Source: Patescibacteria group bacterium
Lineage (GTDB): Bacteria > Patescibacteriota > Patescibacteriia > Veblenbacterales > UBA10138
Direction of reading: 5' to 3'
Length of the DNA: 64,000 nt
NCBI GenBank assembly: GCA_043823825.1
Contig: JBDRTU010000026.1
Location: 43-64,042 of the forward strand
Position 1 is the stretch's first letter. Each line of letters starts with the position of its first letter. The notes beneath the pieces were generated by a model that was not told the DNA's origin, searched no databases, and saw nothing but the letters and a program-made list of their open reading frames with translations. The translations under genes and the position numbers were made by a program. This document shows, in pieces, positions 6,298 to 63,732 of the stretch.

Positions 6298-6764
6298 ACA
6301 ATAAAGTTATTATACTTTTTTTTCTAAGATTTGTCAGCACCAGATGGTACTGTTTGTTGATATTGTAATCTAAAAAAACAGCAGGCTACTGTCAAGCGGA
6401 TTAACTCGTCGAAATAAGTTCATTTCCTGTTTGTTCACTTAAGGTGAACTTGAGAAGAGAGTTATTACTCACTCATTGTCGAGCGAGCCCCTATTTGCTA
6501 GGGAAAAACTTTAATCAACTTATTATTTGAGTAATCGCTTGGCCAGTAGCCTGCTGCTGACTTTGCCTTTTTAAGGAAGTGGTTGGAGGTTGAGAAAGGC
6601 TTGAATTGACCTACAGTAAAGTGGTGTCCAAGCAAGAGAAGTGTACAATTTACACGAAAGGTGCAAACCGTAGCCTCTTCACAAACATTCCCCAAGTATC
6701 CTCCACCCAACTCCTTAAAAAAAAGAAAGTCCACCCTTCAGACTAAGGTAAAACAGTGATTTTG

Positions 6765-9290
6765 TCAAGGTCTACTAGGCCGTTCTAATATTAAACCGTA
6801 AAACTGATCCTGTTGCCAATCACTAAACAAACTTAAACCAACAGGCGTCAATTTTAACTCGGCTGAGGCTTCTTGCCAACGCAAACGCCAACCCTCTGGT
6901 AATTCAAAAGTACTAGTAAAATCTATAGGCTTAGTGCCAGACTGTCTTTGAAACAATACATCGTACTGCCGCAAATCTTGCCATTTAGCTATAGTAGCTA
7001 ACCCAAAGGGTAATTCATATATTATTGATACAGTCTTAGTTTCGCCTGGTTCTAGCACTAACCAGTTAGTAAAAACTGTCTTATTAAATTCTTCGCTAAT
7101 CTCGGTACCCGAGCTTTTGTCGACAGCAATCAGTTTGTGGCTTTTCTTAAAATCATCATCGGGCACTGTTTGGCTTGGCGATGAACGAAACTGCTCTTCT
7201 GGTATGTGACTAAATCCCTCTGCTTGGATTAGCTTACTTCCCAATGGTACATAAAATTTTAGCCAACTAACATTTCGTCGACGATAAAAAATATCATCAG
7301 GATCACCTTGGTGACTGCGTGTAAAATCAACCCGTACTTGCAGATCACCGTTATCAAATAGCTTAACCAGATGCTGTGCCCGTTCATTAATTACCAAATC
7401 TGTTTTACCGCCTCCTATGTTTGCTCTAACAATAGCCAGATAGTCAGCAATAGTGGACTTAATTTCTCCACCCCAACCCGCTTCTATAATCCTCTGCTGA
7501 ATATTTGGGTCATTAAAGTAAAGTTGAATGCTTTTTTGCATCAAGCCTTGATTAATTAAAGTTAGCGCTGTGATCTGATCTGTTGGTTTAAGGTTGATAA
7601 TTCTCTCTAATAATATTGGAGCTAAATCTGCAATAAATTGTTTAGGGCGATTAGTCACACGATCAAACTCTAAATCCACCGCTTCCTGAGTTTCTCTAAT
7701 AAAGTTTTCAGCAGTAATGTGTTTATTATAAGCTGGCAGATCAATCGGCCCAACTAATTTTAATAAGTTAATTATCACATCAGGGTTAATGGCGATCACG
7801 CCGTCAACTGTTGGTCCACCACTCTCTGTAACAAACCATGCAACTTTTTGCGCAGAAGTAGGAAAATCAAAAAACCAATTAGCATCTTGAAGTTGCCATA
7901 AAGGATTCACTAATTTAAGAGGTTGTGGTGGTTCTAATAAAACTGCCAGTTGTCCTTGAAAATCATAAGGACCACCACCAGGGATATCAATTTTATTAAT
8001 TTTACCATTGGTCGTCTCAATAAACGCCAGGCTTCCTAAAAATCCCCCGGCTGGCCTTAATTCTGAATAATTTTGAAACAACAAAAGATAATTTTTATTG
8101 CCACTAGTAGGAATAATTTGGCTAACAATATTTGGTAGCGACAACACCTGCGTTAATCCCCCTTCTAATTTTTGCAAACTGCTGGCTAAACTAACCACTT
8201 CAACATCTACTCCCTGTGGTAACTCTAGCTCACTAACTGATTTTAATAAATTTAACGCTTGTCTAATTTTGGGCTGAATTTCAGCTATTCCGCGCTGAAG
8301 TATTAATATTTTTATATTTAAATCCATCTCCAGAATATTTTCCACGGGACTCGAATCTAATTCGGACATGGTTCTACTAATAATAGAGCCGCTTTCGGCT
8401 AATTCCTTACCAGCCTGTAGTAATTGTTGTGCAGCTACTAGTTGTTGTGATCGACCAGGTAAACGAGTTAATAGTGCCGCTAGACCGGCATTAATATTTC
8501 CTAAAGCTTCTTGGGCATTAATAACTAAGTTAGTTACTTCCTTAAAATCATCTTCAGCTTGATCAAATTCACCTTCAATTAATTTGGAGCTGGCCTGACT
8601 AAATTGATTAAGAGCGGCTGAAGCAAATGTTAATAGTTGAGATTTCCTAAAAGAAAAATCTTGTTGCCAAGTAATCCATTTTAAAGGCAGAATCAATAAA
8701 ATGGCGATTAGTAAAAAAATCACCATTTGCCGCAGACGCGGAACTGTAAAAAAAACGCCAAGTGGCTCTGATTCCCTAAACCACTGCCAAGGCTTAAATA
8801 GTCTACTAATAACTCTATAATTCAACTCAAAATAATAAACTAAATCCTCGGCTATACTTTTACCAATACCCTTCAAACGAACATAAAGAAAATAATAAAA
8901 AAGCGCAACTGCTCTAAAAATCAGATAAATAAAAAAGTATACCAGCTCTAATAAAAAAAGTGCGGTGAGTTCTTGTAATAGAGGGAAACGTAACTCCAAC
9001 CGCCTCCAAGGCACAATGATATAATTCTTTCCTGGTTTTAAGAAATTTATTGCCCAACTCTCACGCTGTTCGAATTTTGATACAGTTTCATTAGTAGGTG
9101 TAGTCTGTTTTAATGGTACCAGGCCCGGCCTTAAATTAAGAACATGTTTGGATAAATCAGGAGTAAATGCCTGCTGACGCCCGAATTTGCCGCCGCGCTG
9201 ATATTTTAAACTCCACCAATTCACATTACTTGATAAAGAGGATTTGTTGGGATTATTATTCTTACCCTTCTTAATAGAAGAAATTGTCAT
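6765..9290 (-). CDS. Large membrane-anchored extracytoplasmic protein, DUF4012-like
   Basis: N-terminal TM segments, then a long exported domain containing NYLLLFQNYSELRPAGGFLGS, reminiscent of the DUF4012 signature. It heads a glycosyltransferase cluster. Confidence 0.45.
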   Translation of the reverse strand: MTISSIKKGKNNNPNKSSLSSNVNWWSLKYQRGGKFGRQQAFTPDLSKHVLNLRPGLVPLKQTTPTNETVSKFEQRESWAINFLKPGKNYIIVPWRRLELRFPLLQELTALFLLELVYFFIYLIFRAVALFYYFLYVRLKGIGKSIAEDLVYYFELNYRVISRLFKPWQWFRESEPLGVFFTVPRLRQMVIFLLIAILLILPLKWITWQQDFSFRKSQLLTFASAALNQFSQASSKLIEGEFDQAEDDFKEVTNLVINAQEALGNINAGLAALLTRLPGRSQQLVAAQQLLQAGKELAESGSIISRTMSELDSSPVENILEMDLNIKILILQRGIAEIQPKIRQALNLLKSVSELELPQGVDVEVVSLASSLQKLEGGLTQVLSLPNIVSQIIPTSGNKNYLLLFQNYSELRPAGGFLGSLAFIETTNGKINKIDIPGGGPYDFQGQLAVLLEPPQPLKLVNPLWQLQDANWFFDFPTSAQKVAWFVTESGGPTVDGVIAINPDVIINLLKLVGPIDLPAYNKHITAENFIRETQEAVDLEFDRVTNRPKQFIADLAPILLERIINLKPTDQITALTLINQGLMQKSIQLYFNDPNIQQRIIEAGWGGEIKSTIADYLAIVRANIGGGKTDLVINERAQHLVKLFDNGDLQVRVDFTRSHQGDPDDIFYRRRNVSWLKFYVPLGSKLIQAEGFSHIPEEQFRSSPSQTVPDDDFKKSHKLIAVDKSSGTEISEEFNKTVFTNWLVLEPGETKTVSIIYELPFGLATIAKWQDLRQYDVLFQRQSGTKPIDFTSTFELPEGWRLRWQEASAELKLTPVGLSLFSDWQQDQFYGLILERPSRP

Positions 9291-14036: not shown

Positions 14037-14115
14037 AAGTTACATTATACCATTTATGGTCATTATTTCTAATCAATTAACCTTAGTCTGATTTGTAATT
14101 TTGAGTACAAAAAAA

Positions 14116-14565
14116 GCTAAGTAGACCAATAAGCCGAATTCTGTCTGACCCCGCCGTGTGGCGGGGGAAGCGATTATCTATCTGGGCCGCCTCTCACGAG
14201 GCGAGCTCTAGCTACCAACCCGTCCGTCTCGCCAATTTCTTGGCGGACGAGACCTACTTGGTATTGCACCGGGTAGAGTTTGCCTAGCCCCCGACGTCAC
14301 CGTCGGGGCTGGTGGGCTCTTACATTTTACGCTGAAGCGTTTTATTCCGCCCGTGGCGGACCCACCGTTTCACCTCTTACCTCGCTCTGCCAGATGGCTG
14401 AGCGGGCGAGTCTATTTTCTGTTGCACTTGTCCTACGACCCACTTACGCGGATCAGCGGCTGCTGTTAGCAGTTACCCTCCGCCTATGCGGCGGACACAT
14501 GGTGTTCGGACTTTCCTCCCCCATCTAATAATTAGATGAGAGCAATCGCATAAGTCTACTTAGCT
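14116..14565 (-). ncRNA. rnpB: RNase P RNA (bacterial type A)
   Basis: The reverse complement contains GGGAGGAAAGTCCGAACAC (P4 5' strand) and ACAGAATTCGGCTTAT (P4 3' strand, matching ACAGAACCCGGCTTAT), plus GGTAAGAGGTGAAACGGTGGG and GTGCAACAGAAA. The P1 stem is agctaagtagac/gtctacttagct at the two ends. This GC-rich island overlaps a spurious 82-aa plus-strand ORF in the track. Confidence 0.8.
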
Positions 14566-14744
14566 ATGACATTATACAACACTGAATAATTTTGTCAACG
14601 TTAAAAATCAACTAATAACTATGGGTATTATTCGCGTGAATAATACCTAAGTGCGTAAAACAGCTACTCATTTGTCTTTATACCTATACTAGTACAGTAG
14701 TATAGCTGACAAAAAAGCCTGATTAAGATTATATTAATCTATTA

Positions 14745-25870: not shown

Positions 25871-25873
25871 CTT

Positions 25874-25890
25874 CTTATTCGCGCGAATTA
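25874..25890. repeat. Palindrome ttattcgcgcgaattag in the sufC-sufB intergenic spacer
   Basis: Core 12-bp perfect palindrome ATTCGCGCGAAT, identical to the copy at 63686-63697. Confidence 0.55.
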
Positions 25891-25918
25891 GAAAGTAGTT
25901 CTATAGTTAAATTAAGGG

Positions 25919-43091: not shown

Positions 43092-43299
43092 ATAGTTATT
43101 TAAGACTATTTTTAGACTACGGTAAACGTGTAGAACAAGCAAACGCCATAGATTAATGTTTTATGCCTATTTTGGCCAGAAACTGTAACTTTCAGGTATT
43201 TTTCTTAGCTAAAATTAGCCAAAAAATAACTTTTTTTGTTCCATAATGCTTGACAAAATTAACCCCTTAACCTATACTGAAATGTTAAATTGAATAATT

Positions 43300-43870
43300 T
43301 AAAAATTAAAAAGAGCCCCCGCGGTGCTTGCGGGTAAAGTAAACATAAGGTGTTTACCCAGGTATCAGATTTTTCCTGACAAGCACAACCGATTGCAGTC
43401 GAATCCCGCAAGAGATACAAATAAGGTAGTCACTCTGGATTAGGAGTGGCTGACTATCGCAGTAGAATAAGCGGTAAAACAAGTATCAACGGGACAAGTA
43501 AGCAGAAACGGATGTTATGGACGGATGACTGATATCTAGGTAAACACCTTTTTAAATAAAAATGTGTCATTAACTCTCCTACATCCCGATTAAAATCGGG
43601 ACTACGGAAGGCGCGACGAGCTACTAAGCAAATTATCTAGTAATCAGATACAACTTAATCTAAATAAAAACTGTAAAGTTGACAAAATTTCTTTCCCACC
43701 AACATGGAGGAGAGAGTTAGTCCGCCGACTAGGCGGATAAAGATGGTGGACTTGGTAAGTTTGGTGCGAACTAAACTAACCATGGGAAACCATTTCACCC
43801 TGGATACGTCTCCCTTCGGGAGATATAAATCCAAGGTACTTCCTCCAGATTAGTGTGAAAGAATAAATAT
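43300..43870. other. Long GC-enriched intergenic segment with multiple stable hairpins, a candidate unannotated structured RNA
   Basis: About 570 nt with no convincing ORF and GC content well above the background. Contains a UUCG-tetraloop hairpin (tctccc-ttcg-gggaga), tccgcc-gacta-ggcgga, cccgat-taaaa-atcggg, and long-range complementarity cttgcggg ... cccgcaag. Confidence 0.3.
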
Positions 43871-43883
43871 AAGGAGTAAAAAG

Positions 43884-44751: not shown

Positions 44752-44828
44752 TAAATAACGCACTTTGCGCACTACTTTCTCCAATCCCACAGAATATTCT
44801 GGACACAGTATTCCACTAGAAATCAAGA

Positions 44829-44864
44829 TTAGGGATTATTGTCCGATCGGACAAAAATCCCTAA
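44829..44864. repeat. 36-nt near-perfect palindrome (nested 9-bp and 8-bp arms)
   Basis: ttagggatt-a-ttgtccga|tcggacaa-aa-aatccctaa, located downstream of murC between two other terminators. Confidence 0.6.
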
Positions 44865-44936
44865 TATTATTTTATCTTATACCGCTACTGCGACTGTTAT
44901 CTAACACTGCGGCCTTAGTCTAGAAATGAAATAAGA

Positions 44937-63533: not shown

Positions 63534-63683
63534 TCCTTTTATTAGTTGTCAAGGTAATTATTTTATTTTCATTTCATCTTAGATTAAAAAAGATATATTT
63601 GTCAATACTTATAAATAAAAACTCGCTCCTCTAGCCAAATTCGCCAGCGGAGTTATTTTATTTTTTAATCTTCAACTATTCTC

Positions 63684-63700
63684 CTATTCGCGCGAATTAG
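63684..63700. repeat. Palindrome ctattcgcgcgaattag upstream of ORF 63045..63533
   Basis: Same 17-nt sequence as at 25874-25890. Confidence 0.55.
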
Positions 63701-63732
63701 AGCCGGGTTAGTTATGCATAATACTTAGAATT

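Follow-up and report, generated by a model that had tools for sequence, protein, structure and literature searches.

A Conserved Two-Domain RNA Upstream of murJ in a Patescibacteria Clade, Probably a Stand-Alone Small RNA with a Modular 3' Domain

Introduction

The long gap between a DUF4012 gene and murJ in a Patescibacteria genome carries what folding and alignment mark, with good support, as a conserved and covarying non-coding RNA on the murJ strand. Promoter-like and terminator-like signals belonging to this RNA are likewise well supported by sequence patterns shared among relatives. A 13-bp inverted repeat, around which an initial annotation had drawn a single element, is probably the closing stem of a domain that forms the 3' half of a non-coding RNA that stands alone, measures about 360 nt and has a promoter and a terminator of its own. 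The stand-alone reading is preferred because the RNA has promoter and terminator signals of its own, because murJ has a separate promoter box, and because the structure covaries. We call the annotated element domain A and the upstream (5') domain B. The annotated element is indeed a structured RNA, but it is the 3' half of a two-domain B-A transcript and not the whole feature. Among the identities that had been offered for it, namely a cis-regulatory RNA, a small RNA or a miniature inverted-repeat element (MITE), the small RNA was borne out by the conserved, covarying RNA domain found on the minus strand.

The genomes of Patescibacteria (CPR) are about 1 Mb in size and contain very little non-coding DNA. 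To our knowledge, few non-coding RNAs have been annotated in them besides tRNA, rRNA, RNase P, tmRNA and SRP RNA. A search of the literature on 6S or other structured RNAs in Patescibacteria, or on a murJ-associated motif, returned nothing relevant. In our view the RNA is a new family within a familiar kind, the structured small RNAs of bacteria, and its modular 3' domain is unusual. The window referred to throughout is the whole stretch of DNA that was analysed, 64,000 nucleotides of a Patescibacteria contig with 38% GC, and positions are counted from its first letter.

The Locus and Its Inverted Repeat

On the minus strand, the genes run in the order GT4 glycosyltransferase, DUF4012 (9290-6765), a gap of 467 nt (6764-6298), MurJ (6297-4696) and LepA. 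Pfam agrees with the names first given to both flanking genes, and the length of the gap is as first reported. The perfect 13-bp inverted repeat exists with its right arm in the place assigned to it (6544-6556), but the left arm had been put at 6381-6393 and lies in fact at 6379-6391. The two arms, CAGCAGGCTACTG (6379-6391) and CAGTAGCCTGCTG (6544-6556), are perfect reverse complements. Imperfect pairing had been said to continue inward, and a repeat finder recovered it as 25-nt arms with 80% complementarity; in the folds, the closing stem of A reaches about 40 bp with bulges. Both of the interior hairpins named earlier are present, ttcacttaaggtgaa at about 6435-6449 and cccta..taggg at 6489-6503, and a third one, at 6467-6488, had been overlooked.

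At the scale of the 64-kb window, the significance of a lone 13-bp repeat is marginal. RNA folding, suggested at the outset as a check, gave z = -9.7 on the minus strand and z = -6.9 on the plus strand for a 188-nt segment, and none of 200 shuffles folded as well. The fold of the whole gap on the minus strand has a z of -8.6 against shuffles. The folds additionally reveal an adjacent second domain with a long stem, at about 6731-6559, which lies outside the coordinates first annotated. The features of the locus are collected in Table 1.

Table 1. Predicted features of the RNA, its signals and the murJ promoter, in window positions.
Feature	Position	Strand	Description and evidence
-35 box of small-RNA promoter	6763-6768	minus	TTGACA; overlaps the DUF4012 stop codon
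-10 box of small-RNA promoter	6740-6745	minus	TAGTCT; 17 nt downstream of the -35 box
TTGACAAAAT sites	6759-6768, 14589-14598, 43250-43259, 43679-43688		all upstream of known or candidate RNA genes
Domain B	6559-6731	minus	three-way-junction RNA; fold and covariance model R1
P1/P2 of B		minus	long closing stem; fold
P3a of B		minus	purine/pyrimidine helix, continues into P3; fold, covariation
P3 of B	6673-6643	minus	variable hairpin; fold
P4 of B	6633-6599	minus	near-invariant hairpin, GCUUGGAYACCA...GGUCNNUUCAAGC; fold
Domain A	6379-6556	minus	178 nt; closing stem of about 40 bp, multiloop with H1-H3; fold and model R2
Hairpin H1 of A	6503-6489	minus	fold
Hairpin H2 of A	6488-6467	minus	fold
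Pyrimidine motif AACUCUCUUCUC	6452-6463	minus	single-stranded between H2 and H3; identical in 6 of 7 A sequences
Hairpin H3 of A	6449-6433	minus	fold
U7 tract	6372-6378	minus	directly 3' of the A closing stem; intrinsic-terminator-like end
murJ promoter	6309-6337	minus	CTGACA-17-TATAAT; promoter scan, 11/12 matches

Structure and Covariation of the Two Domains

Domain B is recognized in the window by covariance model R1 at 6718-6569, with a score of 106.5 bits. Across 15 distinct B sequences, standard pairs fill 94.9% of the pair cells, against 32-53% when the partners are slid, and both sides change in 22 of 41 pairs; 0 of 500 shuffles reach any of these measures. As read from the aligned sequences, helix P3a appears as GAAGG/CCUUC, UAGGG/CCCUA, GGGGA/UCCCC and GGAGA/UCUCC. 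Because P3a covaries, the junction of B is a tight one, and with P3a counted its strands measure about 5-8, 2 and 1 nt in the same alignment.

Domain A combines constant and changeable parts. The outer 12-13 bp of its closing stem are nearly invariant (CAGCAGGCUACC/GGUAGCCUGYUG), and the sequences of H1-H3 are unrelated between genomes. The single-stranded AACUCUCUUCU between H2 and H3 is invariant in the A sequences, and AACUCUCU is common to all seven of them, with hairpins on either side that are unrelated in sequence. The 3' UUCU of the pyrimidine motif can pair with a downstream AGAA or AGGA. The same architecture was obtained in each of six homologues folded alone; the seventh A sequence, that of L106, was aligned with model R2. 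In the model-guided alignment of the seven sequences, 92.2% of cells are paired, versus 28-42% in slid controls, and both sides change in 39 of 60 pairs, counts that lean towards the window's structure because the model that guided the alignment was derived from the fold of the window itself. The initial annotation had pointed to retention of the pairing in related genomes as informative, and six other genomes do keep the pairing, with compensatory changes.

The two domains also agree on the strand. G.U pairs exceed A.C pairs by 27:7 in A and by 48:9 in B, and homologues of B score 17-33 bits with R1 on the reverse strand versus 90-143 bits on the forward strand. From the G.U excess in both domains and the low reverse-strand scores of the B homologues, the RNA is judged to be read from the minus strand. 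The idea that A and B are diverged duplicates gained nothing from blastn of one against the other, which found no similarity. A pairing of the A motif with the 5' strand of P3a in B is possible in most genomes; it was dropped because it shows no covariation and is lost in L082. Within the window, matches to the complement of the A motif are not enriched (8 versus 4.4 expected).

Conservation among Relatives

A metagenome pattern scan on the invariant hairpin of B yielded 13 more loci, and further contigs with MurJ homologues were added. In all, 18 loci, with about 16 distinct sequences, carry B, and in each it lies upstream of murJ on the same strand. Of the two domains, B is the better conserved. 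Domain A is limited to the subclade of the window, with seven sequences (the window, L082, L086, L087, L090, L091 and L106). Conservation of the region upstream of murJ had been put forward as a check, and the contigs with the closest MurJ homologues (57-73% identity) do keep the DUF4012-murJ-lepA synteny; all of them, L092 excepted, hold B and A between DUF4012 and murJ. The intergenic sequence has about 73% nucleotide identity where MurJ itself is 69-73% identical. Where MurJ is 45-58% identical, B occurs without A, on the murJ strand and 25-100 nt before the murJ ATG.

The neighbours of the RNA are not fixed in place. In L082, about 1 kb that includes a 215-aa open reading frame lies between A and murJ, and in L086, L092 and L099 DUF4012 and B are parted by about 1 kb or more. 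Since such insertions separate the RNA from murJ in the one case and from DUF4012 in the others, the module, judged by gene order, moves as a unit and is independent of both neighbours. The inserted reading frame of L082 (4251-4898, 215 aa), between small RNA and murJ, has no Pfam match. L092 and L108 have 2-3 extra genes between DUF4012 and the RNA, one with a weak Pfam match to the aminoglycoside-phosphotransferase family (APH).

Beyond these relatives, 80 MurJ loci of more distant lineages (32-55% identity) were searched with model R1 and none yielded B, so the RNA family appears to be restricted to one clade. The distribution of the two domains points to B as the ancestral core and to A as a lineage-specific 3' module.

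Transcription Signals of the RNA

A promoter of the form TTGACA-N17-TAnnnT stands upstream of B in 18 of 18 loci, 35-75 nt before the closing stem, and the -10 box of the relatives reads TAGCAT, TATCAT, TATTAT and similar. In the window, transcription is predicted to start at about 6734-6732. The -35 box is part of a 10-mer, TTGACAAAAT (6768-6759), for which 0.39 occurrences are expected in the window and 4 are found, one of them ahead of the RNase P RNA gene. Because every site precedes a known or candidate RNA gene, TTGACAAAAT may mark the promoters of stable RNA genes.

The 3' end follows the arrangement of the domains. In loci with B only, a U-run comes directly after the long, GC-containing closing stem of B, and in the relatives that carry A, a U-rich run comes after A. 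Within the window's clade, B mostly has no full U-run, with a partial one retained in L091 and L106, and the spacing from B to A is between 2 and about 40 nt. Read-through past the terminator into murJ-lepA is possible.

Database and Coding Tests

A comparison of the gap with Rfam had been proposed, and it gave no match, either with the whole window at gathering thresholds or with short inputs of 216, 386 and 1501 nt at E <= 10; the only Rfam matches in the window are the RNase P RNA (14114-14562, minus) and a tRNA-Thr. A GC-richer homologue had no Rfam match either, and ARAGORN found no tmRNA in the window. A coding function was also considered. The 78-aa open reading frame at 6498-6734 has no Pfam match and its frame is not kept open in the homologues, among which no conserved reading frame was found.

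Likenesses of B to tRNA, tmRNA, SRP RNA, 5S RNA and the hammerhead were rejected from sequence motifs, and Rfam gave no matches to them. The supposed T-loop of B is a helix strand, and B contains no GNRA tetraloop, no SRP helix-8 motif and no hammerhead core.

Proposed Mechanism and Role

We propose that transcription would start at the conserved sigma-70-type promoter, TTGACA-17-TAGTCT (6768-6740), pass through domain B (6731-6559) and then domain A (6556-6379), and stop at the long stem of A and its U7 tract, just before the promoter of murJ. In the more distant relatives, B alone would make an RNA of about 150-170 nt, with its closing stem and U-run serving as the terminator. Domain A, lodged between the closing stem of B and the U-run, would take over termination. 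The predicted transcript is accordingly about 360 nt in the clade of the window and about 160 nt in loci that lack A.

Four features, namely long stems at the ends, conserved junctions, a P4 that hardly varies and a promoter resembling that of RNase P RNA, together suggest that the RNA is stable, is transcribed abundantly and acts in trans. By its P4 and junction, B has the look of a scaffold to which a protein or a ligand binds. The AACUCUCUUCU of A is a candidate contact site, either for base pairing with purine-rich RNA of the Shine-Dalgarno type or for a protein, and the long stems could be processing stalks for RNase III. A further reading, which we hold tentatively as possible and well short of probable, is that B with an optional A constitutes an undescribed class of stable RNA in this Patescibacteria lineage, either a housekeeping ribonucleoprotein or a ligand-sensing RNA. 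Such a class could stand in functionally for 6S RNA, or it could act as a regulator linked to the synthesis of the cell envelope; the latter role is considered because the RNA lies between DUF4012 and murJ and because two candidates with the same promoter motif adjoin murB. If this reading is true, TTGACAAAAT would mark a small set of unannotated RNA genes.

The B-A RNA likely does something important, since a covarying, separately promoted RNA of 360 nt has been kept at one locus while MurJ has diverged down to about 45% identity. It offers a well-bounded RNA for experiment, with predictions for both its 5' and its 3' end and with two covariance models. The putative gain of A would show how a small RNA acquires a 3' domain by way of the terminator position, and the sharing of TTGACAAAAT with RNase P RNA may be a cheap route to other unannotated RNA genes. 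These points would carry greater weight if the RNA proves to be a Patescibacteria-specific housekeeping RNA.

Comparison with Orphan Structured RNAs

Weinberg and colleagues reportedly described in 2017, from comparative genomics, orphan structured small RNAs such as the raiA motif RNA. As is proposed for B-A, RNAs of the raiA type are stand-alone genes of 150-360 nt with their own promoter and intrinsic terminator. They share with it a multi-stem architecture in which the junction nucleotides are conserved and the peripheral stems covary, as well as a conserved gene neighbourhood. However, B-A has no match to raiA or any other Rfam family, as compared by Rfam scan only, and unlike raiA it is found in one Patescibacteria clade only and is modular, with B as a core and A as an optional 3' domain.

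The Relation to murJ

The leader of murJ was among the identities first offered, and its present form would be a cis-regulatory leader or attenuator of murJ-lepA, similar to a riboswitch, in which B would be the sensor and the stem with its U-run a conditional terminator. The expression of murJ would then need read-through from the promoter of B, and A would be an enlarged expression platform. We consider this unlikely, although it is the main alternative to the stand-alone reading. In every locus whose flank is long enough to tell, B lies directly upstream of murJ in the same orientation, as a cis-acting element would, and the linkage persists where the adjacency to DUF4012 is broken (L092, L099). 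Like a riboswitch with a terminator platform, B-A presents a promoter, a structured core, a stem with a U-run and a gene on the same strand, and the conservation of B is of the aptamer type, with conserved junctions, an invariant P4 and variable distal stems.

However, the closing stem has at least 20 bp and is very stable, and no conserved anti-terminator pairing is apparent in the folds and alignments. Unlike the case in a riboswitch, the terminator stem is the long closing stem itself, with no alternative pairing evident. The murJ gene downstream also has signals of its own. In the window, its -10 box ends 11 nt before the ATG (6297), without a Shine-Dalgarno sequence. A TATAAT or TATACT box is found 7-15 nt before the murJ ATG, again without a Shine-Dalgarno sequence, in about 15 of 18 loci, and it is present even in GC-rich contexts, which argues for a separate promoter. 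In several loci with B only, the -35 box of murJ (TTGAAT or TTGATT) overlaps the U-run of the small RNA. The nearness of the box to the ATG and the lack of a Shine-Dalgarno sequence suggest that the murJ mRNA is leaderless or nearly so, and a conserved -10 box ahead of an essentially leaderless gene sets the locus apart from a riboswitch. Additionally, the insertion in L082 places about 1 kb and a reading frame between A and murJ, and Rfam gives no match to any riboswitch family, so that no known class fits. With the stem and U7 (6378-6372) followed by the own promoter of murJ (6337-6309), the leader option is not favoured, and the RNA is probably not the murJ leader.

Comparison with 6S RNA

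A second alternative is that the RNA is a divergent member of the 6S type, which binds RNA polymerase by mimicking an open promoter, and which the Rfam 6S model may lack the sensitivity to find in this phylum. This we regard as improbable. B resembles 6S RNA (Rfam RF00013) in its size, about 150-175 nt, and in the pairing of its 5' and 3' ends into a long closing stem. It further resembles 6S RNA in having a strong stable-RNA-type promoter and a terminator of its own, and in carrying a hairpin, P4, that lies 3' of the central junction. However, at E <= 10 none of the Rfam 6S models matches. The center of the molecule differs as well: P3a closes a tight three-way junction that leaves about 5-8 nt unpaired on the 5' side, in place of the large central bubble of 6S RNA. 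Additionally, the sequence of P4 is nearly invariant, which is unusual for 6S RNAs.

Terminator and Mobile-Element Readings

The stem and U7 lie downstream of DUF4012 on the same strand, and they might be taken for an oversized intrinsic terminator of the DUF4012 operon, or for a chance hairpin. This is very improbable: a conserved promoter stands between DUF4012 and the RNA, the covarying internal architecture of both domains exceeds what a terminator needs, and the RNA stays with murJ when inserted genes part DUF4012 from it.

A MITE was the remaining identity first offered, and is taken here as an element, whole or relic, that had inserted itself between B and the U-run. A does resemble MITE or REP-type elements in being an intergenic sequence of about 180 nt with perfect inverted repeats at its ends, of which 12-13 bp are conserved. 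Its presence in one subclade only, exactly between the closing stem of B and the U-tract, is likewise insertion-like. The copy search that had been advised found no second arm within 2 mismatches, and no blastn match of the gap, in the 64 kb of the window. The flanks, ctaaaaaaa/CAGCAGG and CCTGCTG/ctgactttg, with the slash at the boundary, carry no target-site duplication. Distant blastn against phage and plasmid records found no similarity, and the 17 matches of viral contigs to the 3' arm pattern of A are taken as chance because model R2 confirms none of them. The mobile-element reading is the least probable of all and is rejected on these grounds: A is single-copy in the window, lacks a target-site duplication, resembles no phage or plasmid and sits at the same orthologous position in 7 genomes, while the covariation of its interior hairpins and the invariance of its internal motif indicate selection at the RNA level. 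The MITE and the plain terminator are both essentially excluded.

Other Candidate Elements in the Window

Two further sites of TTGACAAAAT lead into structured sequence on the plus strand. At 43250-43560, in a 741-nt gap adjoining murB, a promoter of the form TTGACAAAAT...TATACT precedes an element of about 205 nt; a 22-bp inverted repeat (43347-43368/43529-43550) closes the element, which ends in a U5 run. Its fold has a z of -6.1 and it has no Rfam match; this element is a candidate for another unannotated small RNA. At 43679-43883, the fourth TTGACAAAAT site, which shares the gap at 43.1-43.9 kb with the third, leads into a fold of about 145 nt with a four-way junction; GGAGGAG/CUUCCUCC closes this fold, and its z is -5.6. 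Since a 151-aa open reading frame without a Pfam match has its Shine-Dalgarno sequence and ATG just downstream, the fold could be a leader or a small RNA.

The RNase P RNA (14114-14562, minus) is of bacterial class A and scores 198 bits. It spans 449 nt against a model of 367 positions and therefore probably carries insertions. Two palindromic features were also noted. The palindrome core TTATTCGCGCGAATTAGA occurs twice, at 25872-25893 and 63681-63702, and could be the binding site of a regulator. The longest palindromic inverted repeat of the window lies at 44820-44873, with overlapping 31-nt arms of 87% complementarity around CCGATCGG.
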